Source of the DNA: an uncultured delta proteobacterium
GTDB taxonomy: Bacteria; Desulfobacterota; Binatia; UBA9968
Length of the DNA stretch: 64,000 bases
Assembly (NCBI GenBank): GCA_963816145.1
Contig: CAWFJP010000003.1
Location: forward strand, 160,001-224,000
Direction of reading: 5' to 3'
Every line of letters starts with the position of its first letter. The stretch's first letter is position 1. A program made the position numbers and the translations under genes. This document shows positions 35,147 through 53,728 of this stretch, piece after piece. The notes below the pieces were generated by a model. It made no database searches. It had not been told where the DNA came from and worked only from the letters and a program-made list of their open reading frames with translations.

Positions 35147-35273
35147 TATTTTTCCTATTGAGAAATTCCGAAGTGCCGGCAAATCCCTGGGCGGGACAAC
35201 AGGCGAGAATTGCAAAAGTAACTGAGGCGGCGCGGGAATTCAATGAAGTGAGCCGAGGAGATTATCACCGCAG

Positions 35274-35471
35274 AGTGTTCATGAGCTTACGCTCATCTAC
35301 AGATTATGAAATTGCCCGGCATCCCTCCACAGGTACTTTCATTGATCCGTCATGCCGGCGGAGGCCGGCATCCATGGAAGGGAGGGGGATGGATACCGGC
35401 TTTCGCCGGTATGACGAAACCTCCGCGCTGTCGTCTCCCGGTTCATGCCTGCACATGTATTTTCGAAGGAG
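35274..35471 (+). mobile_element. ~195-bp non-autonomous element, copy 1, inserted in family C repeat 35265-35536
   Basis: AG|TGTTCATGAGCTTACGCTCATCTACAGATTATGAAATTGC...family B doublet...TGCACATGTATTTTCGAAGG|AG. Confidence 0.78.
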
Positions 35472-35549
35472 CACGCAGAGATCACAGAGGGTTAGAAAAT
35501 TATTATCTCTGTCTCCTCTGTGCCCTCAGTGGTGAATTTTCCTGTCCGG

Positions 35550-36269
35550 CTATGTTTCTAAGCCGTACTCACGGAGGACGCTTTCTAACGTATCGAAGTC
35601 GGCGAGCGTGCGCAGCGTGGCGAAGGTCGGGAAGATCATCGGCAATTCGTTGCGGTTGCAGAGTTGCATGGCGTGGTCGGGGGTGAGCCAGACGCTGTGG
35701 GCGACTTCATAGGAGGTTGGCAGCGGAATCTGGCCTTGTGGCAGCGCTGCGAGGAAAAAGCGCGTATCGAAGCGCATGGTAAACTGTGCCGGGGTCTGCC
35801 AAGACGAGAAGTGGCTCAAGCTGGCAAGATCGCAATAGAGCTGTTCGCGTTCCAAGAGCCCGGCGAAGCTGAGAGTTTTTTCTGACAGCTCGCCGTGGCA
35901 ATGGGCCAAGTGTGCAGCGCGCTCCGGGGTCATCGACATTTTCGCGCCGTTTGCATCGGCTGCCAACAGCACGCCGACCTCCTCGAAGACTTCGCGCACC
36001 GCGGCGATCCACAGACCGATGGCTTCATCCGGCGTGAAAGCGGCGCCGATAATCTGGCGTGCTTGCTTTGGCGTGCGGCCGACGGTGCGGGCGATCATCG
36101 CGGCGCGGTAATCTTCCTTGCTCACCGTGCCGCCGGGGTAGCAATACATGCCGCCCAAAAACGGCATAGCGTCGGGCCGGCGGGTGAGAAAGACTTCGAA
36201 ACCTCGATGTCCCGCCGGACGCAGCAGGATAACCGTGGCCGCCTGTTTGGGCTTGCGCGGTTCGCTCAT
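35550..36269 (-). CDS. NUDIX hydrolase (NUDT19/acyl-CoA diphosphatase-like)
   Basis: AATVILLR, YPGG, AAVREVFEEVG, WQTP....RFDTRFF, FPT. Confidence 0.88.
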   Translation of the reverse strand: MSEPRKPKQAATVILLRPAGHRGFEVFLTRRPDAMPFLGGMYCYPGGTVSKEDYRAAMIARTVGRTPKQARQIIGAAFTPDEAIGLWIAAVREVFEEVGVLLAADANGAKMSMTPERAAHLAHCHGELSEKTLSFAGLLEREQLYCDLASLSHFSSWQTPAQFTMRFDTRFFLAALPQGQIPLPTSYEVAHSVWLTPDHAMQLCNRNELPMIFPTFATLRTLADFDTLESVLREYGLET

Positions 36270-37042
36270 CGAATTGCCAAACTCACCGGGCCGGAGAAGT
36301 CATTTTGGCAAGGCGGGCCGGGGCAGAAATATGTATCGAAGCGCGCGCGCGCCGCCACCAGAGCGACGATACTCGACGACACCGTGCCGGTCATCTCGCG
36401 GTGCACACAGATGGCGTCGCCGGGATCGTCGGAGCCATCGTGCAGCGTATGGTCGGCCAGCACCGCGCGTAATTCTGCGAGCCAGTCTCGCGGATCAGCC
36501 GCATTAACCGGTATGCGGTCTTTCAAGCGAGCGAATCGCGGATGGGCACGGTCTGCCTTAGCGGAATTCAAGTCCAGCTCCGCGGCGCTGCTGAACACAT
36601 GGAGGCCGGGGTCGAGCTGCTTGGCGACGATCCTGGGCTCGTGGTTGTTGTAGGCGACTCCGGCCGATTTTTGGTCGGCAAATATCAGGGTGAAGGGGTT
36701 ATAGATCGCCTCGTGCGCGGCGATGAAATCGAACCCCTCGGCGAGGTTGCGGAGCCGCAACATATCCATGCACAAGAGGCCGCGCGATCGTGGCGTTGGC
36801 GTCAGTGAAACGTTGTCGCCGCTTTCATTTTGGCGCCGATTCAAGATACCGACGAGCAGGCCATGCTCGTTGACGCCCAGCCAGGTGCCGCCGACCCGCA
36901 GGTCTCGCCCGGCAACGATAAGCGGCACGCCTTCGATCTGGGCTGGCGGCGCCGACGGCCGGTCGAAATGCTCGTCGCGATTGGCCGCCACCAGCAAGGG
37001 CATATCGTCAAAAACATTAAAATAAAGCGCCAAGGTGCACAC
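36266..37042 (-). CDS. NRDE / TANGO2 family protein
   Basis: MC start, AANRDE, GRDL..GGTWLG. Confidence 0.9.
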   Translation of the reverse strand: MCTLALYFNVFDDMPLLVAANRDEHFDRPSAPPAQIEGVPLIVAGRDLRVGGTWLGVNEHGLLVGILNRRQNESGDNVSLTPTPRSRGLLCMDMLRLRNLAEGFDFIAAHEAIYNPFTLIFADQKSAGVAYNNHEPRIVAKQLDPGLHVFSSAAELDLNSAKADRAHPRFARLKDRIPVNAADPRDWLAELRAVLADHTLHDGSDDPGDAICVHREMTGTVSSSIVALVAARARFDTYFCPGPPCQNDFSGPVSLAIR

Positions 37043-37149
37043 GCTTAAATGATTTATCGAATGGTCCGCGCTTGTGCAAACTTCGGGTCGTTCCTCTCGC
37101 CAGGAACAGCGCGAAGGGTTTCGACAATTTCAACTCCGAACTTCTTGAT

Positions 37150-37343
37150 CTCCTTAGAAAATACATGCGCAAGCACGATCTGGGCGACGAGTTGCCATAA
37201 GGCTTCCGTCATACCGGCGAAAGCCGGTATCCATCTCCTCCCTCCCCTGGATGCCGGCCTTCGCCGGCATGACGAATCGGGGGGAGGCGTGCAGGGGGGC
37301 TGCAATTTCATACTCTGTGGACGAGCGTAAGCTCATGGACACT
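37150..37343 (-). mobile_element. ~195-bp non-autonomous element, copy 2
   Basis: CT|CCTTAGAAAATACATGCGCA...GCAATTTCATACTCTGTGGACGAGCGTAAGCTCATGGACA|CT; flanks TCCGAACTTCTTGAT / TCGTGGTG. Confidence 0.78.
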
Positions 37344-37438
37344 TCGTGGTGCACACCGTTCTCGCAATTTCCACGCTAAACCTTGATTGTTGTTGAATAA
37401 TGTTTGTGTTAGCTTCGATAAATTCGGAAAGGGCAACC

Positions 37439-38395
37439 ATGTTTCAATCTGTTGACGAAGTCATCGCCGGCCTGGGCACGCAGAAATATCTGTGCAACAA
37501 GAATGTCGCCACCGTGGTCTACCTGGGCACGTCGCTGCAAAAACCGCTGCTGGTCGAGGGACCAGCGGGAGTAGGGAAGACCGAACTCGGCAAAGTGCTG
37601 GCCGACTCCCTGGGCATGGAGCTGATCCGGCTCCAATGCTACGAAGGGCTCGACGAAGCCAAAGCTCTGTACGAGTGGGAGTACGCAAAACAGCTGCTCT
37701 ATACCCAAATCCTCAAAGACAAGATCGGCGAGATCCTGGAGGGCGCCAAGACCCTGCAAGACGCCGTCGATCATGTCGCCAAACAGGACGGGGTGTTTTT
37801 TTCCGATAAATTTCTCCTGCCGCGGCCGCTGCTGCGCGCGCTATTATCGGACAAACCGGTGGTGCTGTTGATCGACGAGATCGACAAATCGGACGCCGAA
37901 TTCGAGGCGTTTTTGCTTGAAGTTTTGAGCGATTTTCAGATCACCGTGCCGGAAATCGGCACGCTCAAGGCGAAGCATATCCCTCTGGTGGTGCTGACCA
38001 GCAATAACAGCCGGGAGGTTTCCGATGCTCTCAAGCGCCGCTGCCTGCATCTGTTCCTCGACTTTCCGGATCCCGAGCGCGAAAAAGAAATCATCAAGCT
38101 CAAAGTGCCGAATGTCGGCGACAAGCTCGCTGACGAAGTGGTGCGCTTGCTGCACCGGCTGCGTAAGCTCGATTTGAAAAAGACCCCGAGCATCAGCGAA
38201 AGCCTCGACTGGGTGCGCGCCCTGACCCTGCTCAATATCAAGGATCTCGACAACGAGTTGGTCGAGCAGACCATGTCGGCGTTGATGAAGTACGAAGCGG
38301 ACATTCGCAAGGCGCACCAGGAACTGAAAAGCTACCTGGCCGAAAAGCAAGCCCGGCGTCAGGACGCCGGCGACGAGAAAGATCATTTGCATTAG
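37439..38395 (+). CDS. MoxR family AAA+ ATPase (CoxD-like)
   Basis: EGPAGVGKT, RLQCYEGLD, LLIDEIDK, DALKRRC. Confidence 0.92.
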   Translation: MFQSVDEVIAGLGTQKYLCNKNVATVVYLGTSLQKPLLVEGPAGVGKTELGKVLADSLGMELIRLQCYEGLDEAKALYEWEYAKQLLYTQILKDKIGEILEGAKTLQDAVDHVAKQDGVFFSDKFLLPRPLLRALLSDKPVVLLIDEIDKSDAEFEAFLLEVLSDFQITVPEIGTLKAKHIPLVVLTSNNSREVSDALKRRCLHLFLDFPDPEREKEIIKLKVPNVGDKLADEVVRLLHRLRKLDLKKTPSISESLDWVRALTLLNIKDLDNELVEQTMSALMKYEADIRKAHQELKSYLAEKQARRQDAGDEKDHLH

Positions 38396-38422
38396 CCGCT
38401 TGCGTGCGGCATCCCCAAGATC

Positions 38423-39829
38423 ATGCAAGCCCGGGTTATCGAGTTCGCCAATATTTTGCGCCGCAACGGCATCCGCGTGTCGTTGGCGGAAAACATGGAC
38501 GCGTTTCGCGCCCTGGAATTGATCGGCATCGCCGATCCACAGATGTTCCGCAACGCCCTACGGACCACGCTGATCAAGCGCAGCGGCGACCAGAAGCCCT
38601 TCGACGAATTGTTCGATTATTTCTTCCTTGGCATCGGCCAGGCCCTCGACGCCATCGACCGTAAGATCATGGAAGAGCTCGGGCTGTCACCGGAAAAGTT
38701 TCAGGAGATGTTGGAACAGATCCAGAAACTCTTAAAAGAAATGGAAGGGGACTTATCAGATCTCACCAAGGCGCTGCTCAATAACAATCGCGCCGAGCTG
38801 GAACGCCAGCTGCGCGAAGCGATGCAGCAGGAAATGCAAAACGGCAACCCCGAGACCATGCGCCACACGCCCTACACGCGCATGATGATGCGTTTGGGGC
38901 TCGACCGGGTGCAGAGCGAGATCGAGCGCTTCCGCGGCATGCTGCAAATGCTCGGCGAGAACGGCGAGGATCTGCAAAACGTCATGCGCTACCTGGACGA
39001 GCGCATGCGCGACTTGAATCGTTTGTTGCGCGAGATCATCCAGCAGGAGCAGCGCAAGCAGGGCGCCGAACCGCGCGACTACTCGCAGCGCAGCGCTCTG
39101 GCCGACAAGAGTTTTTCATTCTACACCGAAGACGATATCCGGCGCATGAACGACGCCGTGGCGCGCTTGGCCCAGCGCTTGAAAAACCGCCTATCGGTGC
39201 GGCGTAAGAAGGCCGCCCGCGGCCGCTTCGACATCAAGGCGACCCTGCGTAAGAATATGCAATACGGCGGCGTGCCGTTTGACATTCAGCTCGACCGACG
39301 CAAAAAAACCAAGCCGCAGGTGATGGTGCTGTGCGATATTTCCGACTCGGTGTTGAACGCGTCACGCTTCATGCTGCAGTTCGTCTATTCGATCCAGGAT
39401 CTTTACGCCAAGGTGCGCAGCTTCGTGTTCGTCGCCGAGATCGGTGAGGTGACCAAGCTCTTCGAGGAACACGACATCCAGACCGCGGTCGAGACCGCTT
39501 TGAAAGGCGACGTCATCGACGTTTTTTCCCATTCCAATTTCGGCCGCGCTTTCGAACAGTTCCACCGAAACTTTTTCGCTTCGATCACCAGCAAGACCAC
39601 GGTCTTGATCATCGGCGACGGGCGCAATAATTATAACCGGCCCAACGATTGGGTGCTGCGCGAGGTCAAACAAAAGGCCAAGCAGTTGATCTGGCTCAAC
39701 CCTGAAAGCCGCATGACCTGGGGCATCGGCGACAGCGAGATGCCGCGCTACGCGCCGCATTGCCATGTCGCCGAAGAGTGCCGCAGCATCAATCAACTTT
39801 ACAAAATTGTCGATTTGATCGCGCCATGA
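38423..39829 (+). CDS. VWA domain protein (CoxE-like)
   Basis: FANILRRNGI, CDISDSV MIDAS-like motif, IGDGRNN, WLNPE, DSEM. Confidence 0.9.
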   Translation: MQARVIEFANILRRNGIRVSLAENMDAFRALELIGIADPQMFRNALRTTLIKRSGDQKPFDELFDYFFLGIGQALDAIDRKIMEELGLSPEKFQEMLEQIQKLLKEMEGDLSDLTKALLNNNRAELERQLREAMQQEMQNGNPETMRHTPYTRMMMRLGLDRVQSEIERFRGMLQMLGENGEDLQNVMRYLDERMRDLNRLLREIIQQEQRKQGAEPRDYSQRSALADKSFSFYTEDDIRRMNDAVARLAQRLKNRLSVRRKKAARGRFDIKATLRKNMQYGGVPFDIQLDRRKKTKPQVMVLCDISDSVLNASRFMLQFVYSIQDLYAKVRSFVFVAEIGEVTKLFEEHDIQTAVETALKGDVIDVFSHSNFGRAFEQFHRNFFASITSKTTVLIIGDGRNNYNRPNDWVLREVKQKAKQLIWLNPESRMTWGIGDSEMPRYAPHCHVAEECRSINQLYKIVDLIAP

Positions 39830-41190
39830 AGAAGCTTTACATCCAGACCTACGGCTGCCAGATGAACCAGTACGATTCGGAAAAAATCGCCCAGGTGCTG
39901 GCGCGCAAAGATTATGTCCAAACCGATCGCATCGATAGCGCCGACGTAATCCTGCTCAACACGTGCAGCGTGCGCGACAAGGCCGAGCAAAAGGTCTACA
40001 GCGCGCTCGGCAGTTGGAAGCAATTCAAAGACTACCGCGACGGCGTCATCATCGGCGTCGGCGGCTGCGTCGCCCAGCAGGAAGGCGAAAATCTTTTAAA
40101 GCGCGTTCCCCATCTGGATTTGGTTTTCGGCACGCACAACATTCACAAGCTGCCGGAGATGATCGAGCAGGTGGAACGTAGCCGGGCCCGGCCGGTGGAG
40201 ACCGCTTTTTACCGCGATCCGGCGTACATGGACGACGGCGAACTGCGCACCCAAGTCGACGGCGTCAAGGCCTTCGTGACGATCATGCAAGGCTGCAACA
40301 AGGTCTGCAGCTTCTGCATCGTGCCCCATGTGCGCGGCCGCGAAGTGAGCCGGCCCAGCGATAAGATTCTCGCCGAAATCGAATCGCTGGCGCGCCATGG
40401 CGTTAAAGAAGTGATGCTGCTCGGCCAGAACGTTAATTCCTACGGCAAGCTCACTCCCGGCGAGCTGAGTTTTGCCGAGCTGCTCAACCGGGTCGATAAA
40501 ATTGATGGTTTACGCCGCATCCGTTTCACCACCTCGCATCCGCAGGATTTGTCGCCGGAGCTGATTGAGGACTTCGCCACGTTGAGAAACCTCTGCGAAC
40601 ATCTCCATTTGCCCGTGCAGTCCGGTTCGGATTCTGTTTTAACGCGTATGCGCCGCGGTTACACCATGACGGAGTATTTGGACCGGCTCCATCGTCTCCG
40701 GGCGCGTTGTCCTAAAGTAGCGCTGAGCACCGACATCATCGTCGGCTTTCCCGGTGAAACTGACACTGAATTCGAGCAGACGCTAGAATTGCTGCGAGAG
40801 GTGGAGTACGATGACATTTACTCGTTCAACTATTCACCGCGGCCGCAGACCGTCTCAGCGAAAATTTATCCCGACGATGTTCCCAACGACGTGAAGAAGG
40901 ACCGTCTGAAGAAAGTGCAAACCTTGCAGCGTGAAATCTCGCTGGCGAAAAACCGCCAGCGCATCGGCGACCGCGAGGAAGTCCTGGTCGACGGGCCGTC
41001 CAAACTGAAGGCCGAGCAGGTCATGGGCCGCACCCGCGCCAACCGCATCGTCAACCTCACCGGTTCGACTCGATTGATCGGTGAGTTCGTTCAGGTACAT
41101 ATAACCGGCGCCACCGCCAACTCGTTGCTCGGCGAGTCGATGTGCGCTAATGCTGCGGTAGCATCCCAGCAAGAAGGGGATAGGCAATGA
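39826..41190 (+). CDS. miaB: tRNA-2-methylthio-N6-dimethylallyladenosine synthase
   Basis: TYGCQMN, NTCSVR, GGCVAQ, GCNKVCSFC, TDIIVGFPGE, TRAM domain; ATGA overlap with VWA gene. Confidence 0.96.
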   Translation: MKKLYIQTYGCQMNQYDSEKIAQVLARKDYVQTDRIDSADVILLNTCSVRDKAEQKVYSALGSWKQFKDYRDGVIIGVGGCVAQQEGENLLKRVPHLDLVFGTHNIHKLPEMIEQVERSRARPVETAFYRDPAYMDDGELRTQVDGVKAFVTIMQGCNKVCSFCIVPHVRGREVSRPSDKILAEIESLARHGVKEVMLLGQNVNSYGKLTPGELSFAELLNRVDKIDGLRRIRFTTSHPQDLSPELIEDFATLRNLCEHLHLPVQSGSDSVLTRMRRGYTMTEYLDRLHRLRARCPKVALSTDIIVGFPGETDTEFEQTLELLREVEYDDIYSFNYSPRPQTVSAKIYPDDVPNDVKKDRLKKVQTLQREISLAKNRQRIGDREEVLVDGPSKLKAEQVMGRTRANRIVNLTGSTRLIGEFVQVHITGATANSLLGESMCANAAVASQQEGDRQ

Positions 41191-41714
41191 GCGCGAAACC
41201 AGACTGCATCGAAATGTCCGTCGGCGGATTGACCCTCGACCCGGTGACCAAGACGCCGATCGTGATTCTCAAAGACACGGAAAATAAACTCAATTTGCCG
41301 ATCTGGATCGGCCTGTTGGAAGCGACCGCCATGGCCACCGAAATCGAGGGCATCGCCATGGCCCGGCCGATGACCCATGATTTGCTCAAGACGCTGTTGG
41401 CCGAAGTCGGCTGCACGGTGCAGTCGATCGAGATCACCGAGCTCAAAGAAAACACTTACTATGCTGCGATAAATCTATCGGTCTCTGGGGGTCGCCAGTT
41501 GGTGCTCGACTCGCGCCCGAGCGATGCCATCGCATTGGCGCTGCGGGCCAAATGTCCCATCTATGTCGCCAAGGCGGTGCTGGAAGCTTCCAGCGTCTTG
41601 CAGCAGGACGAAAGCAAAGATGTGCCCGTGGAGAACGTCTCCAACGTATCCCAAGAAAAATGGGGTGAGATTCTCGAAAAAATGACCCCAGACGATTTCA
41701 AGTACAAGCAGTAA
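41187..41714 (+). CDS. Bifunctional nuclease family protein (DUF151)
   Basis: LPIWIG..EA, RPMTHDL, DSRPSDAIALA. Confidence 0.92.
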   Translation: MSAKPDCIEMSVGGLTLDPVTKTPIVILKDTENKLNLPIWIGLLEATAMATEIEGIAMARPMTHDLLKTLLAEVGCTVQSIEITELKENTYYAAINLSVSGGRQLVLDSRPSDAIALALRAKCPIYVAKAVLEASSVLQQDESKDVPVENVSNVSQEKWGEILEKMTPDDFKYKQ

Positions 41715-41785
41715 GGTCCCTTCGTGCCGCTCTATCATTAGTTCAAGTTATAGTTGAGAAATCATCTGATTTTCGCACCAAATAC

Positions 41786-42478
41786 ATGGCTACATCGCAT
41801 ACTCGAAGAATCACCCGCAAAGAACTTCGCCAGCCCGACCGATTTCAGATCGCCACCGAACAGGCGCTGGAATTCTATCAGTCCCACCAGAACTTAGTTT
41901 TCGCCGCCATCGGCGCGTTGGTGCTGATCGGTGTAGTGATTTTGGGTTGGCAGATGTTTAAGGAGCGGCAAAATACCGCGGCGGCTCAGGAGTTCACCAA
42001 CGCGACGGAACTTTATCAAGCTGAAAAGTATCGCGAAGCGCTGGCGGCCTTTGAAAAGGTCGAAAAGTACCGCTGGTCTCGTTACGCCGGCTTGGCTTAT
42101 CTGTACCAAGCCAACAGCCAAATTGCTCTCGGCGAATTGGATAAGGCTCTAAGCTCGGCGCAGCGTGCCGTCACGGCCAGCACACCCAATACGTTGTACC
42201 GCCAGTTGGCGCTGATGGCCCTGGCGAATGCTGCGGAACAAAAGAACGATTGCCGCCAAGCCATCGAGCCTTATAACGAAGCGCATAAGATCGCCGCGGC
42301 ACAACAAGCCGAAGCATTGCTCGGTAAAGCGCGCTGCTTGGAGAAGACCGGCGACGCCGCCGGGGCATTGGTTGCGTACAAGGAATATGTGAAAGACCAG
42401 CCGGGTTCGATTATAAGCGCGAAAATTGCCGAGCTTGAGAGCGTCAAGGGTGTACCGCCGGCGCCAGCGGCTAAATAG
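41786..42478 (+). CDS. Membrane-anchored TPR protein (YfgM-like)
   Basis: RKELRQPD, single TM helix, TPR-like repeats. Confidence 0.75.
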   Translation: MATSHTRRITRKELRQPDRFQIATEQALEFYQSHQNLVFAAIGALVLIGVVILGWQMFKERQNTAAAQEFTNATELYQAEKYREALAAFEKVEKYRWSRYAGLAYLYQANSQIALGELDKALSSAQRAVTASTPNTLYRQLALMALANAAEQKNDCRQAIEPYNEAHKIAAAQQAEALLGKARCLEKTGDAAGALVAYKEYVKDQPGSIISAKIAELESVKGVPPAPAAK

Positions 42479-42491
42479 CCGCATCTAGTTA

Positions 42492-42519
42492 ACGTCTGAT
42501 AAGATATATTATGTAAACT
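42492..42519 (+). other. dif: dif site (XerC/XerD chromosome dimer resolution)
   Basis: ACGTCTGATAA-GATATA-TTATGTAAACT, 11-6-11 layout; XerD arm resembles E. coli TTATGTTAAAT; intergenic between convergent genes; gene-strand bias flips here. Confidence 0.8.
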
Positions 42520-42639
42520 TTATAGTGGAGGCTCTACCCGAGGTTCTTATGGCCTGAACCGCCGGCACAACTCAATCTCTACTAACTCAATTCTGTTCAA
42601 TCTCCTCTTCCGATATTCATCCATTCAGGCAATTCCGCG

Positions 42640-43638
42640 CTACCGCTTCGATAGTTGATCGATAAAGCCGCTGTCGTCGAGTTTCTTGAGCATCGACTGA
42701 TTGATAACCATCTCCGGTTTGATCTTAGCGACGAGCGGGTCCGATTCGGCGATAAATTCGATCATAGATGCGATGCCGGCAACGTCGACATAAGGTTTGG
42801 CCGTCAGCACTTTAATCGCTGACTGGTAATGCTCCTCAGCTTTGTCGATGCGGTCCAATCGCAAGTATTTGGCGATGATTTGCTTGACCCGCTCCTTATT
42901 GCGCGGGTCGAGGCTGAAACTGTTGCCGGCGACGATACCCTTGAGCGCACGCTCGACAAACTCCGGGTCGGTTTTGAGGGTGCGCTCGCGAATGCTCATG
43001 GTTTGCTGCGGATATGGGATTGGCAATTCGGTGAAGTCGGCCAGGATTAAATTGCCGCGCTCCTTGAGCGTCGGTCCGAGACCGGGATTGACGATGATCG
43101 CATCGCTGCCGCCGGATTGGAGCGAGCCGACCCGCGCCGCTTGATTGCCCAACTGGAGGATCGTAATGCGGTCGCGCCGGGCATCGAGCCCCCAGTGCTT
43201 CAAGCCAAGCAACACGGCATGATAAGAGGCCGTGCCGGCTTGGGCCGCGCCAATCCGTTTCCCTTTGAGATCTTCCGGTTTCTTAATCGTTGCGGAAGTC
43301 ACTAGGATATAGTTCATTTTGTTGACGACGCCGGCGAACATGGTCAAGTCGGCGCCGCGCGCCCGCGCGCTGATCACCGGCTGGCCCGACATGCCCATGA
43401 TGGGAATATCGCCGGAGATCAAAGCCTGGGCGCCGCGAGTGCCGCCTTCGATCAAGATCAAATCAGGCTCGCTGCCGTAGCGTTTAAATAGCCCCTCATC
43501 TTTGGCCACCCACAGAGGCGTCTGATTGGAACTAAATGAAGAATAGCCGAGCAGAAACTTGGTTTGCGCGTTGGCGAGATTCGGCAGAATAGCCAACGCG
43601 ACCAGAAGTAGATCCCGAATAAATTTTTTCATCGACAT
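42640..43638 (-). CDS. ABC substrate-binding protein, SsuA/NMT1/THI5-like
   Basis: Signal ANA-Q; WVAKDEGLF; DLKGKRIG; LDDSGFID. Confidence 0.88.
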   Translation of the reverse strand: MSMKKFIRDLLLVALAILPNLANAQTKFLLGYSSFSSNQTPLWVAKDEGLFKRYGSEPDLILIEGGTRGAQALISGDIPIMGMSGQPVISARARGADLTMFAGVVNKMNYILVTSATIKKPEDLKGKRIGAAQAGTASYHAVLLGLKHWGLDARRDRITILQLGNQAARVGSLQSGGSDAIIVNPGLGPTLKERGNLILADFTELPIPYPQQTMSIRERTLKTDPEFVERALKGIVAGNSFSLDPRNKERVKQIIAKYLRLDRIDKAEEHYQSAIKVLTAKPYVDVAGIASMIEFIAESDPLVAKIKPEMVINQSMLKKLDDSGFIDQLSKR

Positions 43639-43689
43639 CCTCGCGCGACGCCCAAAGATTGTATTCTTTGGATTCCCGGACTTTCCGAT

Positions 43690-44781: not shown

Positions 44782-44798
44782 ATCGTCCTCGAAAGATT

Positions 44799-44893
44799 TC
44801 CCCTCGCCCGCTTGCGGGAGAGGGCTAGGGTGAGGGTTTTTTGAGAATTGATCGAATCAGCCCTCACCTCAATCCTCTCCCAAAGGGAGAGGA
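44799..44893. repeat. Family E hairpin repeat pair
   Basis: CCCCTCGCCCGCTTGCGGGAGAGGGCTAGGGTGAGGG ... CCCTCACCTCAATCCTCTCCCAAAGGGAGAGG. Confidence 0.8.
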
Positions 44894-44904
44894 CTTTAAA
44901 TTCA

Positions 44905-46008: not shown

Positions 46009-46050
46009 TTTGTTCCTCTACGATTGACTCAAATTTTTGCAATGGTTGAT

Positions 46051-46134
46051 TTCCACCACGAAGACACGAAGGGCACGAAGGTATCGAAGGAAAAATTTTC
46101 CGAACTTCGTGCTCTTCGTGTCCTTCGTGGTGAA
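46051..46134. repeat. Family C hairpin repeat (intact)
   Basis: CACCACGAAGACACGAAGGGCACGAAG ... CTTCGTGCTCTTCGTGTCCTTCGTGGTG. Confidence 0.85.
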
Positions 46135-46147
46135 TTTCCCGAATATT

Positions 46148-47167
46148 CTATGGAGCGCGACCCCATAGCTTGGTGAAAAAACCCTCGTCGACCAACTCCT
46201 GCACCAGACTATTATCGTAGAACTGCGCCGGCTTGGCTTGCTTCGCCTTGGCATTGGTGCGCGCGATCTCATCGAGGGTTACTTGAAATCCCGCAGCTTT
46301 CACGAACGGCACTTTCTCCATGAATTCGTAGCCGTACTTCAGCGTGGCTTCCAAAATTTTCTGGTCCTGGACTTTGGTGTACTTTTGGAAGATCTTCAAG
46401 CTGTCTTCTTTACGGTTGTAGAGAAAATGCATCGAGCGCGCGTAGGCGCGCATGAAAGCTTTGGCTTGCAGCCGATGTTCCTTGATAAAACGCTTGGTGG
46501 TCGTGATGCTCAAGTGGACGAACGGAATCTCGTCCTTGACCATGTTGGCGAGCAGCCGCGCGCCCTGTTGCTCGGCCACCGCGGCCATCGGTTGCGACAT
46601 GGCGGCTGCGGCGATGAGTTTTTTCGACAGCGCCGCGGCGATTTCCGGCTGGCCGCCGATCTGCACGAAAGCGACATCTTTGTTGGCTTCAAGCCCATAC
46701 TTGGCGAGAAACATGCGCGTGCCAAAATCGGACGCCGCGCCGAAGCGCGAGATGCCCACCGATTTGCCCTTGAGATCGGCGATGGTTTTTATCTCGGGAG
46801 TGGCCATCATGTAAAACGGCACGATGTTGACCACCGCGCCAATAGAAACTAAATCGCCGCCGGCCAATCCGGAATCGGCGACCACCTGGCTGTTTTGCGC
46901 GCTGATCGCAATATCGCCGGCTAACGTCGCCTTCGCCGCGGTCGGCGAACTCAGGATAAATATCGTATCGACGTCCAAGCCTTCCTGTTTATAAAGGCCG
47001 GCTTCCGGCATGATCCAAAAAGGCGAATTAAAGGCGCTCACCGAGGTCCAGGCGATGACCAGTTTCTGCGCGGCGACCGGAGCGCCATACAAAACCAGCA
47101 TCAAGATAGCGACGGCGCATGCCCTGATCAAACCCCGAACACAATCACGAACACGCAATCTTGTCAC
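46148..47167 (-). CDS. ABC substrate-binding protein, SsuA/NMT1/THI5-like
   Basis: GTGA overlap with upstream paralog; KQEGLD; DLKGKSVG; LVDEGFF. Confidence 0.87.
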   Translation of the reverse strand: MTRLRVRDCVRGLIRACAVAILMLVLYGAPVAAQKLVIAWTSVSAFNSPFWIMPEAGLYKQEGLDVDTIFILSSPTAAKATLAGDIAISAQNSQVVADSGLAGGDLVSIGAVVNIVPFYMMATPEIKTIADLKGKSVGISRFGAASDFGTRMFLAKYGLEANKDVAFVQIGGQPEIAAALSKKLIAAAAMSQPMAAVAEQQGARLLANMVKDEIPFVHLSITTTKRFIKEHRLQAKAFMRAYARSMHFLYNRKEDSLKIFQKYTKVQDQKILEATLKYGYEFMEKVPFVKAAGFQVTLDEIARTNAKAKQAKPAQFYDNSLVQELVDEGFFTKLWGRAP

Positions 47168-48153
47168 GGCATCTTCCCCCACAATTTCACATAAAACCCT
47201 TCGTCAATCAGTTCCTGGACCAAACTGTTATCGTAGAACTGTTCCGGTCTGGCGCTCTTAGCTTTGGGATTTTTCTTGGCGATGTCGTCAAGCGTGATCT
47301 GAAATCCGGCCGGCTTCACCAGCGGCACCTTTTCGATGAAATCATAGCCATAGGTCATACTGCCATCGAGCATGCCTTGATCTTTGATCTTGGTGTACTT
47401 GGCGATGATCGCTTTGGCGTCTTCTTTTCTCGTGTGCATGAAATGGACGGCGCGGCCGTAGGCGCGCAGGTAGGCCTTCGCTTGGGCGCGCCGTTCGCGG
47501 ATGAACTTGCGCGTCGTGGTCACCCCAACATGGAGAAACGGGATATTTTCTTTCGCCAGATTCGCCAACTGATGCGCTCCACCCTGCTGTGCGACATAGG
47601 CCATCGGTTGGGAAAAAGCCGAAGCCTGGACGGTGCGCTTGCCCATCGCCGCGGCGATTTCCGGCAGACCGCCAAGCTGAATCATGGGCACGTCTTTCAC
47701 CGGCTCCAAGCCGTATTTAGTTAGAAACATCCGCATGCCGACATCGCCCGACGAGCCGAAGCGCGTAACCCCGACGGTTTTGCCCTTCAGATCGGCGATG
47801 GTTTTGATCTCCGGCGTTGCCATGATGTAGAAAGCGACGACGTTCGTGATGCCGCCCATCGCCACCAGATCACCGCCCTGCAGTCCAACATCGGCGATCA
47901 CCTGGCCGTTGGCCGGCGAGATCACCACCTCGCCGGCGAGGGTCGCCTGCGCCACCGTCGACGAACTGGGAATGTAAACCAGCTCGGTATCGAGCCCTTC
48001 TTGCTTGGCAAAACCGACGTCTTGAATGATCCAGAAGGTTGCATTAAGCGTGCTGATCGACGAGTAAGCGTGAACGAATTTCTGCGAATGCGCTGAGCTG
48101 GGTAAAATCAACAGAGCAACTGCGATCAAGATGATAGCTATCTTATGAGTCAT
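47164..48153 (-). CDS. ABC substrate-binding protein, SsuA/NMT1/THI5-like (tandem paralog)
   Basis: AGGA + ATG at 48153; signal AHS-Q; very similar to 46148. Confidence 0.87.
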   Translation of the reverse strand: MTHKIAIILIAVALLILPSSAHSQKFVHAYSSISTLNATFWIIQDVGFAKQEGLDTELVYIPSSSTVAQATLAGEVVISPANGQVIADVGLQGGDLVAMGGITNVVAFYIMATPEIKTIADLKGKTVGVTRFGSSGDVGMRMFLTKYGLEPVKDVPMIQLGGLPEIAAAMGKRTVQASAFSQPMAYVAQQGGAHQLANLAKENIPFLHVGVTTTRKFIRERRAQAKAYLRAYGRAVHFMHTRKEDAKAIIAKYTKIKDQGMLDGSMTYGYDFIEKVPLVKPAGFQITLDDIAKKNPKAKSARPEQFYDNSLVQELIDEGFYVKLWGKMP

Positions 48154-48283
48154 ATTCGTCCTATTCGTCTGATTCTTTGAAATAGCAGTCGTACCGGCAG
48201 GCCCGGAAACTGTCAAGCCTGGTAGATATTGGCTTGCAACCGAAATGCGTCTGTCCTATGGTCCGGCTGAAAGCGGACACTCT

Positions 48284-49477
48284 ATGAGCATAACCAATAA
48301 AGCAGCAATCGTTGGCATCGGCGATACGCCGACGGATCGCTTGGGCTCCAAGCCCGGCGAACCGCGCAAATCGAGCGCCGAGTATTTATCCTGGGCCATG
48401 CATCTCGCGCTGGAAGACGCGGGCTTGAGCCTCAAGGACTTTCAGGGACAGGGGCTCGGCGTAACCATTCCGACCGCCTACCCGCAACCGTTCTGGCCCG
48501 AAGAAGTGAGCGAGATCCTCGGCATCACACCCGGCTTCTTGCTCGGCGGCGCCACTGGCGGCGCCGGTGCCGTGTCGCTCATCGGCGGCATGAGCGCGGC
48601 GATCAATTCCGGATTGATCGATCTCGCGTTGGTGCTCGGCGCGGCCGCGCCGTTCTCCGAACATTGGAGCGGCGGAATCCAGCCCGGCGACATGCGCGAT
48701 TGGGAGATCCCCTACGGCACCATGGGGCCCAACAGCAAGATCGCCATGGTTATGCGCCGCCATATGCATGAATACGGCACGACCCTCGATCATCTGGGCA
48801 AGATCGCCGTCACCGCGCGCTACCATGCAAGCTTGAACCCGCTCGGCTACCTGCGCACGCCGATGACCATCGACGATTACAAGAACTCACGTTTAGTTGC
48901 CGACCCGGTGCGCTTGTTCGATTGCGTCATGCCGGCCAACGGCGGCAAAGCGTATATCTTGGCCTCCCCCGAGCGCGCTAAATCTCTGCGCAAGAAGCCA
49001 GTATGGGTCAAGGGATTCGGCGAGCGCAGCAATCCGTCGTATGGGCCGCGCGCCGGCTCCGATGCGCTAGTGATGGGCGTCAAAGACGCCGGTCGAGTCG
49101 CCATGGAAATGGCCGGCGTCAAACATAAAGACATCAATTTTCTCCAACTCTACGACGATTACGTGATCGTCGTTTACTTGCAGATCGAAGATCTGGGCTT
49201 TTGCCAGAAAGGCGATCTCAAGTTCTTCGAGAACACCGACTTTACTTTCAAAGGCCAGCTGCCGATCCAGACCGGCGGCGGCATCATCAACTGCGGCCAA
49301 CCCTCCACCGCCGGCGGCGTGCATCATATCCTCGAGGGCGTGCGCCAGTTGCGCGGCGAAGGCGGCGACCGCCAAGTGCCCAACGCCAAGATCGGCTTGA
49401 TCTCCGGTTTGGGCGTGCTCCCCTACGGCAAAAATCTTGGCTGCTGCGCGGTAGCCATTTTAGGAAACGAAGTGTAA
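48284..49477 (+). CDS. Thiolase-superfamily protein (SCP2/Ltp2-like, lacks the canonical nucleophile Cys)
   Basis: AIVGIG, HASLNP, PVRLFDC, LYDDY, TGGG, VRQLRGE. Confidence 0.88.
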   Translation: MSITNKAAIVGIGDTPTDRLGSKPGEPRKSSAEYLSWAMHLALEDAGLSLKDFQGQGLGVTIPTAYPQPFWPEEVSEILGITPGFLLGGATGGAGAVSLIGGMSAAINSGLIDLALVLGAAAPFSEHWSGGIQPGDMRDWEIPYGTMGPNSKIAMVMRRHMHEYGTTLDHLGKIAVTARYHASLNPLGYLRTPMTIDDYKNSRLVADPVRLFDCVMPANGGKAYILASPERAKSLRKKPVWVKGFGERSNPSYGPRAGSDALVMGVKDAGRVAMEMAGVKHKDINFLQLYDDYVIVVYLQIEDLGFCQKGDLKFFENTDFTFKGQLPIQTGGGIINCGQPSTAGGVHHILEGVRQLRGEGGDRQVPNAKIGLISGLGVLPYGKNLGCCAVAILGNEV

Positions 49478-49482
49478 CGACC

Positions 49483-49911
49483 ATGGCTGAACTCGATGTA
49501 AGAAAACCCTTGCCGGCGATCACCAGCGAAGCGAAAGCCTTTTGGGACGCCGCGGCGCAACAGAAACTGACCATCCAACGCTGCCAGGATTGCCGCGCCT
49601 GGGTCTGGACGCCGCGCCCGTCATGCAACGAATGCGGCAGTGAGAAAGTCGAATGGACGCCGATGAGCGGCAAAGGCGAAGTCTATTCCTTCACCGTCAT
49701 CCGCCAAGTGGTCGGCCGCGCCGCTTCGAAATCCTTCGAGCCGGACATCCCTTATGTGATCGCCTGGGTGGATTTAGAAGAAGGCCCCCGCCTGATCACC
49801 AACATCGTCGGCTGCCCGGTCGAGGATGTGAAACTCGGCATGAAAGTGACCGTGCAGTTCGATAAGGCCTCCGAAAAGATCTGGCTGCCGAAGTTCGGAC
49901 CGGCGGCTTAA
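49483..49911 (+). CDS. DUF35 Zn-ribbon/OB-fold protein
   Basis: FWDA, QRCQDC, PRPSCNEC, GEVYSFT, PYVIAWVDLEEG. Confidence 0.92.
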   Translation: MAELDVRKPLPAITSEAKAFWDAAAQQKLTIQRCQDCRAWVWTPRPSCNECGSEKVEWTPMSGKGEVYSFTVIRQVVGRAASKSFEPDIPYVIAWVDLEEGPRLITNIVGCPVEDVKLGMKVTVQFDKASEKIWLPKFGPAA

Positions 49912-49991
49912 TCGCTGTCGAAAGCCCAGATTTGGTTTAAGTCAGTTTTGGAAATAGTCGAAACGTTTCACATTTTGGGAAACCACCTGTG

Positions 49992-50099
49992 AGTCTTGGC
50001 GGCACAGAGCTTGCCCCGGACTCGATCCGAGGCCGGCATCCATCTTCTTCATCGAATCAACGGTCTAAGACTGGATACCGGCCTCCGCCGGTATGACGG
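49992..50099. repeat. Family B REP doublet with a GCTTGCCCCGGACTCGATCCG insertion
   Basis: GGCCGGCATCCA ... TGGATACCGGCCTCCGCCGGTATGACGG; the same inserted motif occurs near 4606. Confidence 0.7.
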
Positions 50100-50197
50100 A
50101 ATTGGATCAACTTGGTTGGCTGTCAGTGCCGAGTGACAGAATTGCCGCTCCATGTCCAAGCCTCTTTCGCCGACAACCCGCCAACTCCACCCATTGG

Positions 50198-50431
50198 CTA
50201 GCCGCTGGTGATTACGATGCCGCATTTTTCACAGCGATAACGAGCTTCGCGGCCGCCCGCATGAGTCAGTTCCTCAAACTCGAAGTGTTTGATGCCGCTG
50301 CTGTCGAAACACTCCGGGCAATGACCGTCGCCTAACTCTTCCGCGGCCAGGGTCAAATGGCAGCGCCGGCAACGCATGGTGCTCTTGCGTTCAACAAGGA
50401 GTTCTAAAGTTGCGTGCCGGCACGAAGTCAT
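50198..50431 (-). CDS. Small putative zinc-ribbon protein
   Basis: CRH, CRRC, CPEC and CEKC in 77 aa; starts 15 bp after the uup stop. Confidence 0.6.
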   Translation of the reverse strand: MTSCRHATLELLVERKSTMRCRRCHLTLAAEELGDGHCPECFDSSGIKHFEFEELTHAGGREARYRCEKCGIVITSG

Positions 50432-50446
50432 CGATTCGGAGGGTAA

Positions 50447-52360
50447 TCAGTTGTTCGCCGCCGCCGTCAACAGCTCCAACTCCTGCCAGCGTGTGTAACA
50501 GGTGTCGAGTTCGGTTTTCACCGCCTCCAACCGCTCCATCGTCACGCTGATCTTTTCGCTGCCCTGACGGTAAAAGCCCGGTTCGCCCATGCGGCGGTTG
50601 ATCTCCGCCTGTTCAGCTTCCAAAGTTTCGATTTGTTCCGGCAACGCCGTTAGTTCACGTTGTTCCTTGTAAGTGAGTTTGCGCGGCTTGTCCCTGCGTT
50701 TGCTGTCGACCGGCGTGGGCATGGCTGCGCCATTGGCGCGCTTCTTGGTTTCGCCGGGGACGTCGGGAATTTGCCGCTGATAGCGAGCCCAGTCTTCGTA
50801 GCCGCCGGCATATTCGGTGAACCTGCCATCGCCTTCGAAGACCAGCGTGCTGGTGACAACGTTATCGAGAAAGGTGCGATCGTGGCTGACAAGCAAAAGC
50901 GTTCCTTCGTATTCGGACAACAGCTCTTCAAGAAGTTCCAAGGTGTCGACGTCGAGATCGTTGGTTGGCTCATCGAGCACCATCAAGTTGGCCGACTGAG
51001 TGAACAGCTTGGCCAACAGCAGCCGATTGCGTTCGCCTCCGGATAGCGCACTGACCGGCGAATCGATGCGCTGAGGCGGGAATAGAAAATCCTTCAAGTA
51101 ACCGATCACATGGCGCGAGCGGCCCCGGACGGTGACATAATCCGAGTCGCTCAAGTTCTCGCGCACGGTCTTGTCCGGGTCGAGAGTACGGCGGTGCTGA
51201 TCGAAATAAGCGACCTGCAGCCGGGTGCCCAACAACACTTCGCCGCTGGTCGGCTCGAGTTCGCCCAAGATCAGTTTCAGCAGAGTGCTCTTGCCGGATC
51301 CGTTGGGACCGATGATGCCGACCCGGTCGCCGCGCAGAATGCGCGTTGACAGTTCGCGAATGATTGGCTGGTCGCCGTAACGAAAACTCACGCGGCGCAC
51401 ATCGACCACCAGCTTGCCGGAAGTGGAGCCAGCGTCGAGAGTGAAACGGGCCTTGCCCTGAGCATCCAAGCGGTCGGCCTTTTCTTTACGTAGGGCTTGC
51501 AGCGCGCGCACCCGCCCTTCATTGCGGGTGCGCCGCGCCCTCACGCCTTTGCGGATCCAGACCTCTTCCTCGGCGAGCTTCTTGTCGAACTTGGCGGCGG
51601 CGCGCTCCTCTATTTCCAAGAGCTCGTCTTTTTTTTGCAAGTAGCGATCGAAGTCGCCGGGAAACGATAGGAGTTTGCCGCGGTCGAGTTCAACGATGCG
51701 AGTCGCCAGACGGCGGACAAAAGTTCGATCATGGGTGATAAACATGACCGCGCCTTGGTAATTGAGCAGGTATTTTTCCAGCCAGTTGATGGCATTGATA
51801 TCGAGATGGTTGGTCGGCTCATCGAGCAGCAACAAGTCGGGCTCGCTGGCGAGCGCGCGCGCCAACATCACCTGGCGGCGTATACCGCCGGAGCACTCGG
51901 CGAGGCGCTTATCCTCCGGAAGGTTCAAACGCGTGAGCACGGTTTCGACTCGTTGATTGATGTTCCAACCGCCCAGGCTCTCGATCCTGGCCTGCAGCCG
52001 CGCCAGCAAAAGCAACGATTCGCGATTGCCCACTCCGTCACCATGGGTGAGGTTGTGATACTCGGCCAGCAGTTGGCCAAGCTCGCCGGTGCCGCTGGCG
52101 ACGACTTCAAAAACCGTCTGGTCGGTGTCGGGCGGTACCTCCTGTTCTAAGTGGGCAACGCGCAATGAGTCGGCGCGCCAGATCTCGCCATCGTCGGCAA
52201 GCGTGTCTCCGGAGATTATCCGAAACAGCGTCGTCTTACCGGTGCCATTGCGCCCGACCAGACAGACCCGTTCACCGGCATCGATTTGAAAACCGACCTG
52301 GGACAAGAGCGGAATATGGCCGTAGGCGTGGGAAATATTATCGAGACGAAGTAACGGCAT
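50447..52360 (-). CDS. uup: ABC-F family ATPase Uup
   Basis: Two ABC domains, WIRKGVRARRTRNEGRV linker, C-terminal KLTYKEQREL coiled coil. Confidence 0.93.
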   Translation of the reverse strand: MPLLRLDNISHAYGHIPLLSQVGFQIDAGERVCLVGRNGTGKTTLFRIISGDTLADDGEIWRADSLRVAHLEQEVPPDTDQTVFEVVASGTGELGQLLAEYHNLTHGDGVGNRESLLLLARLQARIESLGGWNINQRVETVLTRLNLPEDKRLAECSGGIRRQVMLARALASEPDLLLLDEPTNHLDINAINWLEKYLLNYQGAVMFITHDRTFVRRLATRIVELDRGKLLSFPGDFDRYLQKKDELLEIEERAAAKFDKKLAEEEVWIRKGVRARRTRNEGRVRALQALRKEKADRLDAQGKARFTLDAGSTSGKLVVDVRRVSFRYGDQPIIRELSTRILRGDRVGIIGPNGSGKSTLLKLILGELEPTSGEVLLGTRLQVAYFDQHRRTLDPDKTVRENLSDSDYVTVRGRSRHVIGYLKDFLFPPQRIDSPVSALSGGERNRLLLAKLFTQSANLMVLDEPTNDLDVDTLELLEELLSEYEGTLLLVSHDRTFLDNVVTSTLVFEGDGRFTEYAGGYEDWARYQRQIPDVPGETKKRANGAAMPTPVDSKRRDKPRKLTYKEQRELTALPEQIETLEAEQAEINRRMGEPGFYRQGSEKISVTMERLEAVKTELDTCYTRWQELELLTAAANN

Positions 52361-52431
52361 CGGAGCGTATATCTAGTTCCATTCGAATTAATGCAAGTTG
52401 TTACGAAATACCGACGCTCGCAGCGATCGCC

Positions 52432-52725
52432 TCAGCGCATCAACGCCGCAGCCAAAGCAATGGCCGCCAAAGTCGCGGTAGCGATCAGGGCGATCAGCAC
52501 AAACTGCACGGTCTTGCGCAATTTGGCCAGTTGCACTCGCAGCACGGTGAATTGCACATCCACCGTCTCGTTGAGTTCGGCCTGAAGTTCGAAGCTTTTC
52601 TCCAGGGCAACCAGGCGATCCCCACAGTGGTCGGGGCGCAGGTCGGCGAGCCGCTTTCGCAGCGATCCCGCCGCGGTGGCGCCGCCTGACACCAGCGGCC
52701 GTAATTTGGCGAATAGCTGCTTCAT
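52432..52725 (-). CDS. Hypothetical coiled-coil protein with C-terminal TM helix
   Basis: Heptad-like middle and hydrophobic tail VLIALIATATLAAIALAAAL. Confidence 0.55.
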   Translation of the reverse strand: MKQLFAKLRPLVSGGATAAGSLRKRLADLRPDHCGDRLVALEKSFELQAELNETVDVQFTVLRVQLAKLRKTVQFVLIALIATATLAAIALAAALMR

Positions 52726-52893
52726 CGCTCGAGTTCGCTCAACTCGTTCATGTCAAGATATTACCCTAATCCTGATGCGGGATAAACTCGGCACGAAGGT
52801 ATGCCGTTGGTGCATAGTTTCGTTGAATAGGCTGCTAGCGAAGAATTCTTCGGGGTGGCTATCGCAGCGCATTCCCCATAATCCGGTCACCTC

Positions 52894-53427
52894 TTATGGA
52901 TCATGGTAGTTCATCGTGTTGTGTTGAATGGTGTTCATGAAATAGAGCGCCAACGGCCGGCCCTGCGCGTCCGCCGCCGCGAGCAAGCGCGGCGAGGTCT
53001 CGTAACGTCGAAAGAAATTATCGTAGCCGAGCTGTTCATAAGCGTTCTGTTCCGGCAGACTGCGAGCGTAAATGATGCCCGAGCGAGTCGCGCGAAGTTC
53101 TTGCGGCACGGCTTGGGCCAGCGGCAAGCCCTGCCCGGAATTGTTGCCGATGATGACGTAGTCGACCGCCTTGGCTAACTCGGCTAGCGTTCTGATAATG
53201 CCAGGCAGCGATACTTCATCCCAGTTTTTCATCTCGGCTTTGCCCAGCGCTGCGTTCAACACTTTGGGATACCCTTCGGCGATCTGAAACATGCCGTTTT
53301 GCTGTACGATGCGCGCCCAGGGCAGCGGCGGCTCGGTGACGAATTCGCCGACAGTGACTTCGTTATCGAGAATCAGCGCGACGAACTGCTGGTTTCGCGC
53401 CTGATGAAGCAGTGTAGTTAAATCCAT
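52894..53427 (-). CDS. Hypothetical protein
   Basis: 177-aa ORF with normal composition filling the intergenic gap; YVIIGNNSGQG. Confidence 0.65.
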   Translation of the reverse strand: MDLTTLLHQARNQQFVALILDNEVTVGEFVTEPPLPWARIVQQNGMFQIAEGYPKVLNAALGKAEMKNWDEVSLPGIIRTLAELAKAVDYVIIGNNSGQGLPLAQAVPQELRATRSGIIYARSLPEQNAYEQLGYDNFFRRYETSPRLLAAADAQGRPLALYFMNTIQHNTMNYHDP

Positions 53428-53446
53428 TAAATATAACCCTTTCGAA

Positions 53447-53645
53447 CTCCTAAAATTACATGTGCAAGTATGAGCGGGCGGCGAATTGGCACGAGGTTTC
53501 CGTCATACCGGCGAAAGCCGGTATCCATCCCCTCCCGCCCCTGGATGCCGGCCTTCGCCGGCATGACGAATCAAGGAAAACACCATGGGCTGTTGGGATG
53601 GTTGCAATTTCATACTCTGTAGACGAGCGTAAGCTCATGAACACT
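53447..53645 (-). mobile_element. ~195-bp non-autonomous element, copy 3
   Basis: CT|CCTAAAATTACATGTGCA...GCAATTTCATACTCTGTAGACGAGCGTAAGCTCATGAACA|CT; flanks TTCGAA / TCGTGGCCTTCGA. Confidence 0.78.
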
Positions 53646-53728
53646 TCGTGGCCTTCGAACTACTATGACTGAGAATTTGCGCGGCCTGCGCAAATATTAT
53701 CGCCGTGCAATCGCCAACCCACCGCGCC

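Follow-up and report, generated by a model that had tools for sequence, protein, structure and literature searches.

A family of ~195-bp repeats inserted in 9-mer-repeat hairpins, probably miniature derivatives of an IS110-family insertion sequence

The window analysed here is a 64,000-nt stretch of DNA from an uncultured bacterium (positions 160001-224000 of contig C3 of genome G000, an assembly of 7.82 Mb with 56% G+C in 31 contigs). It contains three copies of a ~195-bp repeat that are very probably non-autonomous derivatives of an insertion sequence (IS) of the IS110 family, similar to MITEs (miniature transposable elements with inverted repeats) but devoid of inverted repeats. Copy 1 (35276-35471, plus strand, 196 bp) consists of a left end, a spacer, a doublet of repetitive extragenic palindromic (REP) sequences, a second spacer, and a right end finishing AAGGAG. 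The REP doublet is the cargo of this copy and occupies 35348-35416 (plus strand) as two inverted GC-rich hairpins. Copy 2 (37150-37341, 192 bp) and copy 3 (53447-53643, 197 bp) lie on the minus strand. A left end of ~42 nt with the consensus TGTYCATGAGCTTACGCTCGTCTACAGAGTATGAAATTGC is common to all three copies. The right end is also conserved and finishes ATTTTC(T/G)AAGGAG, the tip being shortened to ATTTTAGGAG in copy 3. Mean column identity in an alignment of the three copies is 80%. An initial annotation of the window had placed these copies correctly to within 1-2 nt; its spans took in the flanking AG of copies 1 and 3 and ran 2 nt into the flank of copy 2. The shared ends, central REP doublet, and variable spacers that it described were all found in the copies. 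It had also reported that terminal inverted repeats are absent and that AG stands on both sides. No such repeats are present in an alignment of 44 copies from the genome, and the left flank ends in AG, as does the element itself.

The copies stand at a particular position in a second repeat, a hairpin built of 9-mer units. The left target unit of copy 1 is CACCGCAGAG (35266-35275, plus strand), which is the outermost 9-mer unit of the 5' arm and carries the AG core at its end. The rest of this CACAGAG-type hairpin follows the element at 35472-35536 (plus strand) with inner units, a loop, and a 3' arm ending GTGGTGAA, a layout like that of the empty hairpins of two relatives, G003 and G007. The left target unit of copy 2 is CACCACGAAG (37342-37351, minus strand), and a decayed hairpin remainder (ATCAAGAAGTTCGGA...CCCTTCGCG) lies to its right at approximately 37090-37149 (minus strand). 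Copy 3 follows GGCCACGAAG (53644-53653, minus strand) and has no recognisable hairpin to its right. Its right tip stands 19 nt ahead of the ATG of an open reading frame (ORF) at 52894-53427 (minus strand), with AGGAG positioned where a ribosome-binding site might be (53427-53447). The window also contains an intact, unoccupied hairpin at 46051-46134, in which CACCACGAAG is followed directly by the next unit. This empty target bears out the earlier claim that removal of the element restores a 9-nt periodicity, and the empty orthologous and near-isogenic sites described below confirm the exact boundaries of the element.

The same target is used across the genome. The left flank of almost every copy ends (T)CACCACGAAG or (T)ACCACAGAG, and to the right of the element stands G(A)CACGAAG-NN-CACGAAG followed by a loop and a mirror-image arm ending CTTCGTGGTGA. 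In other words, the element splits the 5' arm of a long 9-mer-unit hairpin directly after the outermost CACCAC(GA/AG)AG unit, and the next hairpin unit forms the right flank in most copies. The element ends in AG in most copies, and the left flank ends in AG at 54 of the 58 left ends found in the genome. The last 8 nt of the left flank fall into four classes in 42 of these 58 copies, namely CCACGAAG (31 copies), CCACAGAG (7 copies), CCGCAGAG (2 copies), and CCACAAAG (2 copies); the other 16 are 1-3 letters off these classes. The target unit CACCACGAAG occurs 404 times in the genome when both strands are counted. It is followed by GACACGAAG 91 times, by GCACGAAG 102 times, and by TGT, the element start, 19 times. 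About a quarter of the hairpins are occupied. Some copies, for example copy 3 and those at C2:40496 and C12:127043, have the left target and no right-hand hairpin.

How large is the family? A blastn search found 50 places in the genome that match the element over at least 150 bp, and 44 copies align end to end at full length, numbers well above what chance would produce. One of the 44 lies on the 10.5-kb contig C22, which repeats the copy at C14:233208 together with its flanks and is probably an assembly duplicate of that region. Profiles of the two ends (nhmmer, whole genome, E<1e-3) detected 58 left ends and 45 right ends. A right-end match was paired with 47 of the 58 left ends, giving about 47 complete copies, and a diverged right end was visible by eye in 9 of the 11 unpaired ones, which carry a different palindrome in their middle. 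Two left ends without a right end, at C24:34635 and C1:94826, have 226 bp in common and then diverge, with no transposase ORF downstream. Elements range from 180 to 222 bp in length, with ~40 nt conserved among them at each end.

The central REP doublet has 239 solo matches elsewhere in the genome. Other subfamilies carry other palindromes at its position, again with common internal junctions, and copies with a CAGAG flank (CACAGAG type) form a sequence subfamily of their own with their own spacer variant. At least two families of REP doublets occur in the genome, one of GCCGGC type, to which the 239 solo matches belong, and one of CCCGCG type; a CCCTCGCCC-type palindrome is present as well. 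In the relative G040 (C2:27300-27860), at a locus orthologous to C3:239876 of G000, the opposite arm of a CACGAAG hairpin is occupied by a related miniature element whose palindromic cargo differs. A regulatory or small-RNA role was not apparent. Rfam returned only two chance-level matches on the element region, and inspection of the ends by eye revealed no convincing sigma-70 or sigma-54 promoter motif. Orientation relative to neighbouring ORFs, taken from crude scripted ORF calls, showed no bias (same/same 18, opposite/opposite 16, opposite/same 15, same/opposite 8).

Evidence that the copies are insertions comes from a comparison with syntenic regions of same-genus genomes, in which the neighbouring genes are 80-90% identical and the intergenic DNA was read. 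For four sites, the hairpin has been retained in the syntenic region of a relative, and in all four cases an orthologous hairpin without the element was found. At the site of copy 1, the hairpin reads CACCATAGAG then GACACAGAG in G003 and CACCACAGAG then CACACAGAG in G007. Likewise, the site of copy 2 reads CACCACGAAG then GGCACGAAAG in G003 and CACCACGAAG then CGCACGAAG in G040. The site corresponding to C3:239876 reads CACCACAGAG then CACACAGAG in G036, and at the site corresponding to C3:242751 in G002 a hairpin unit is followed directly by the next unit. At the remaining sites, the relatives are rearranged or have no hairpin altogether; at C27:26398, gap sizes alone suggest that they have neither hairpin nor element. 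The two flanks of the copy at C27:18604-18807 are on different contigs in 4/4 relatives, which places a rearrangement junction at the element or the hairpin.

Independent evidence came from public metagenomes of soil and wetland, in which ~70% of the words sampled from the stretch 34800-37800 are present (RNA runs contain small shares of it only). Assembled contigs of four runs (X1-X4) were mapped to this stretch. Contigs of two of the four runs, X2 (side of 80 letters at the joint) and X3 (side of 34), join 35272 to 35469 and thereby skip exactly 196 bp, with three letters that fit either side of the joint. The X2 contig differs from the window at 2 letters over 473 bases, and the flanks in the contigs of the two runs are ~99.6% identical to the window. 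Nearly identical strains thus differ in whether they carry copy 1, with the boundaries exactly as predicted. At copy 2, flank contigs of X1-X3 enter the right end for 39 nt and the left end for 19-20 nt, and X4 yielded repeat pieces only. Other contig joints, with sides of 21-30 letters, come from repeat copies elsewhere and were left out, and uncovered parts prove nothing. Because orthologous and near-isogenic sites are empty, the copies are true insertions with exact boundaries.

These observations bear on the possibility that the hairpin repeat includes the element as a fixed module, which spreads with the hairpin or by gene conversion and never inserts on its own. Such a module would be in keeping with the occupation of about a quarter of the hairpins and with the association between element subfamily and hairpin type, as in the CACAGAG-flank copies with their own spacer variant. 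However, hairpins at four orthologous sites do without the element, the near-isogenic site differs by exactly the element, and copy 3, C2:40496, and C12:127043 have the left target without a hairpin to the right. The association with hairpin type is explained by full-length parents with different guides, described below. The empty sites refute the fixed form of such a module, and the explanation as a whole is very unlikely.

Where did the ends of the element come from? A search for longer versions that enclose a gene for a DEDD recombinase between the same ends led to the identification of ~1.55-kb IS110-family elements in relatives and metagenomes. The domain PF01548 is present in 20 of 31 genomes of the genus. 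An end-profile scan located the left end ~290 nt upstream of the DEDD domain in 3 of 30 IS110 loci of the genus (G009:C456, G032:C232, and G005:C323; E 1e-10 to 5e-9). In these parents, a left flank ending ...CACCACGAAG is followed by the left end, a ~240-nt non-coding leader, and an ORF of 421-424 amino acids. The encoded recombinase has the DEDD_Tnp_IS110 and Transposase_20 domains (PF01548, 1.3e-32; PF02371, 2.7e-18). The element ends with ATTTTCGAAGGAG ~37 nt past the ORF, and G(G)ACACGAAGAGCACGAAG comes next. Close homologues of the recombinase (76-83% amino-acid identity) occur in 3/30 genomes of the genus and also outside it, in four further genera of the same family, and 11/123 genomes of the order match it at E<=1e-40. 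The same left flank and left end were present at all 12 close-homologue loci. The right tip ATTTTC[GTA]AAGGAG was present at 10 of them, the other two being cut before the right end; it is followed by a hairpin unit at nine loci and by a miniature left end at one. Twenty-nine complete parent copies measure 1535-1560 bp, except for one of 1168 bp (L175) that has an internal deletion. Parent and miniature element agree in their first ~40 nt and last 13 nt, are bordered by AG at either side, and use the same target hairpin. Both follow CACCAC(GA/AG)AG and precede the next hairpin unit.

Full-length and miniature elements can also adjoin each other. On the 3' side of locus L160 (G075:C779), the right tip of a full IS adjoins a miniature left end with one AG between them. 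At a metagenomic locus (L182), the left flank of the IS is the right tip of another copy. Both arrangements are head-to-tail tandems like that of ISPpu9 with MITEPpu9. Rfam has no family matching the full IS. The genome of the window contains no homologue of the cognate recombinase at E<=1e-40, and leader positions 41-260 have no match anywhere in it. The absence of a mobilising enzyme that the initial annotation had reported for the window thus extends to the whole genome. The genome's own IS110 gene, on contig C13, was rejected as a parent, being 32% identical to the cognate recombinase, having unrelated ends, and not standing in a hairpin.

A full element and a short one at the same kind of site could also mean that a full IS110 element was inserted at each site and later lost its middle, the short form never having transposed. 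The full element does use the same sites, and L175 is an example of an internally deleted copy. Yet the 44 full-length miniature copies have identical internal junctions and the same foreign cargo between them, and none keeps a remnant of the leader or the recombinase beyond nt 40. The subfamilies with other cargo again have common junctions. Independent deletions would not repeat the same breakpoints, which makes an origin by separate deletions highly improbable.

Which enzyme acts on the miniature element? The initial annotation had described a repeat-targeting miniature element mobilised in trans either by an IS110-type recombinase or by an HUH/RAYT-like enzyme (RAYT, REP-associated tyrosine transposase). 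The parent with the same ends and target supports the first part of this view. According to the second, the repeats would be derivatives of single-strand transposons, such as the palindrome-associated transposable elements of the IS200/IS605 group, or REP/RAYT-type units, and a Y1 HUH transposase would recognise the left-flank target and subterminal hairpins. Several features are what such an enzyme would lead one to expect: inverted repeats are lacking, conservation is stronger in the left flank than in the right, a REP doublet serves as the cargo, and the left end allows a small hairpin to be drawn. The genome also has seven PF01797 matches, including three IS200-like genes and three RAYT-like genes of ~325 amino acids. 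The folding of the ends, however, does not bear this out. The z-scores are 0.40 for the right end, which has no hairpin, and -0.76 for the left end, no better than shuffled sequences. The left-end hairpin proposed in the initial annotation is broken in most full-length parents (CATGATC...GCTCGC), and compensating changes were seen by eye in few copies only. The further suggestion that a G-U wobble in it reflects a strand-specific RNA or single-stranded DNA structure found no support.

Orientation provides another test. In IS608 and ISDra2, orientation is tied to the replication strand. As the hairpin offers the target on both strands, the orientation of the copies should reveal a single-strand mechanism tied to replication. 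GC skew in the genome is clear, with a mean absolute value of 0.039, but orientation was independent of the replication strand (plus strand in positive skew 18, plus in negative 15, minus in positive 14, minus in negative 10; Fisher p 0.79). Moreover, the two related IS200 copies have ordinary ends unrelated to the element. No REP, hairpin unit, or element end adjoins the Y1 genes, and none of the REP or palindrome families described above flanks the three RAYT-like genes. A full-length IS110 parent accounts for both ends and the target. With no strand bias, unrelated ends, no linked motifs, and no paired hairpins, mobilisation by an HUH/Y1 enzyme was rejected and is considered extremely improbable. 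The skew itself changes from +0.010 to -0.013 in 100-kb windows at window positions ~37000-64000 and beyond (~197-240 kb of C3), and this sign change may mark the replication terminus.

How does an IS110-family parent find the hairpin? A candidate determinant is an 8-nt segment of the leader located between GCCCG and TGTGATCC. The segment is ACACGAAG in elements inserted at ...CCACGAAG and ACACAGAG in the one genome copy inserted at ...CCACAGAG (G081). A metagenome scan with the eight positions left open returned 48 loci, of which 43 are this IS and five are chance matches in a coding gene. Where the flank was readable, guide variants stood at the identical flank in 4/4 cases for CCACGAAG, 9/9 for CCACAGAG, 2/2 for CCGCAGAG, and 1/1 for CCACAAAG. 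The flank of the two resolved CCGCAGAG cases is the one found at copy 1. Flank position -4 is identical to the corresponding leader column in 29/29 copies and position -3 in 27/29. The leader segment and the flank thus change together, in the forms CGAAG, CAGAG, GCAGAG, and CAAAG. Positions 2-8 of the 8-nt segment equal the left flank in 30 of 34 distinct insertions, whereas 10,000 shuffled pairings averaged 17 matches and never exceeded 25, a comparison that overstates independence, as the insertions are related, and is not a probability. A second leader segment, CGAAGGAG, is invariant and resembles the element's right tip, as expected of a left donor guide. In IS621, the left target guide is reported to pair with the bottom strand and thus to read like the top strand, core included (PMC11208160). 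Judged from sequence, the covariation of guide and target is the signature of a bridge-RNA target guide, and the parent leader would then be a bridge RNA.

The findings converge on a model in which the ~1.55-kb parent inserts after the outermost CACCAC(GA/AG)AG unit and comes to have AG on both sides. The 8-nt left-target segment of its guide would pick the hairpin unit, and the leader segment CGAAGGAG would match the donor right tip. The miniature form keeps the donor sequences around the AG core, which comprise the first ~40 nt on the left and the last ~13 nt on the right, with an unrelated palindromic cargo, mostly a REP doublet, between them. As it has neither guide RNA nor enzyme, its movement would require a cognate full-length element that provides both in trans, presumably by way of a circular intermediate and with the leader acting as a bridge RNA. 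Such action in trans is feasible, because a 22-bp donor of IS621 works with bridge RNA supplied in trans, according to PMC11208160, and because MITEPpu9 offers a precedent. The left flanks in the genome of the window fall in classes with known parent guides (CGAAG, CAGAG, GCAGAG, and CAAAG), which fits bursts of insertion by parents with different guides. The initial annotation had also drawn a parallel with the CT core of IS621. The IS110 part of that parallel holds, but the identity of the core does not. AG is read on the strand of the recombinase gene, so it is a different core and not the CT of IS621 read on the other strand.

Several points weigh against this model. The circle, the excision event, and the mobilisation in trans are inferred from sequence. 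One of the three genus-level parents is in an unpublished genome (G005), and only 13 nt of the right end are common to parent and miniature element. The conserved ~40 nt on each side exceed the need of an IS621-type 22-bp donor. A mutual-information scan of 29 copies detected no right-target or right-donor guides (highest value 0.57, no consistent antisense pattern); right-flank spacing in these copies varies between 8-mer and 9-mer units. A provisional RNAalifold model places the covarying segment on the 3' side of a predicted loop, unlike in IS621. Lastly, a genome with ~50 copies that holds no cognate recombinase or leader leaves current mobility here unexplained, and the polymorphic copy 1 site could be an old insertion that differs between strains.

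Are the miniature elements still moving in this lineage, despite the lack of a cognate recombinase and guide RNA? The basis for such a reading is the one site that is polymorphic between strains with ~99.6% identical flanks, and continued movement is judged unlikely. If it occurs, the enzyme and guide would come from outside the genome, for example from transient plasmid or phage copies or from co-resident strains; alternatively, an unrelated IS110 element would do the work. The targets open to the elements would then depend on which guide variant had most recently entered the cell. Such a nesting of genomic parasites would have three levels, with a hairpin repeat holding a guide-less IS110 mini-donor that in turn holds a REP doublet.

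Bridge recombinases are under development as programmable DNA-insertion tools, and the elements described here are of interest in that connection. They are a natural counterpart of the laboratory result with IS621, in that a short, guide-less donor is apparently moved by a guide and an enzyme acting in trans. The elements suggest that the ends kept by a natural donor comprise ~40 nt on its left side and 13 nt on its right. The parents provide a natural series of reprogrammed guides (CGAAG, CAGAG, GCAGAG, and CAAAG) at matching targets, and the miniature subfamilies are sorted accordingly. The persistence of ~50 copies in a genome without a parent is a population question of interest alongside this guide series. 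For annotation, the family accounts for a mosaic repeat that stands out in Syntrophobacter-like bacteria of soil and wetland. A pattern scan of genome contigs returned 72 loci, many of them chance matches in unrelated phyla, and pointed to metagenome-assembled genomes labelled Syntrophobacter-like, Thermodesulfobacteriota, or 'delta proteobacterium' as the lineage. Repeat surveys need caution, since IS110 derivatives lack inverted repeats and so go unnoticed by MITE finders.

The family resembles several known systems in part. REPINs with their RAYTs and the bacterial interspersed mosaic elements of E. coli have in common with it the inverted REP doublet, here a cargo with 239 solo matches, and a mosaic of nested repeats. 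However, the ends, target, and parent of the element are of the IS110 type, and the RAYT-like genes of the genome are unlinked to it. The palindrome-associated miniature elements of IS200/IS605 likewise lack inverted repeats and insert sequence-specifically beside a conserved left flank. Here, in contrast, there are no paired subterminal hairpins, no strand bias, and no Y1 parent with these ends.

IS621 is a closer match (PMC11208160, PMC11208158). Both systems have a recombinase with DEDD and Tnp domains and a left end that is long and non-coding; inverted repeats are absent, an identical dinucleotide stands on either side, and insertion is into repeated palindromes. In both, the sequence of an 8-nt leader segment follows the top strand on the left side of the core and varies in step with the target, and another part of the leader resembles the element's right tip. 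The differences are that IS621 has a CT core where AG stands here on the recombinase-sense strand, that the mutual-information scan gave no right-side guides here, and that the predicted fold places the covarying segment differently. The parent described here is known from its sequence, to which no Rfam family matches.

The nearest likeness is to MITEPpu9, a MITE-like element associated with ISPpu9, an IS110-family element of Pseudomonas putida KT2440 (PMC12288879). MITEPpu9 also has repetitive palindromic sequences as its targets and is proposed to use the machinery of the IS in trans. It is found directly downstream of the full IS or alone, and a head-to-tail pair of full IS and miniature element was seen here as well. 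However, MITEPpu9 carries a small-RNA gene, ssr9, whereas the elements described here carry REP doublets or other palindromes. Eight MITEPpu9 copies stand beside seven parents in one genome, compared with ~50 copies and no parent here. The target here is a 9-mer-repeat hairpin. A literature search of limited depth turned up no IS110-derived miniature element besides MITEPpu9. The present family is thus a large and well-resolved case of a kind described once before.

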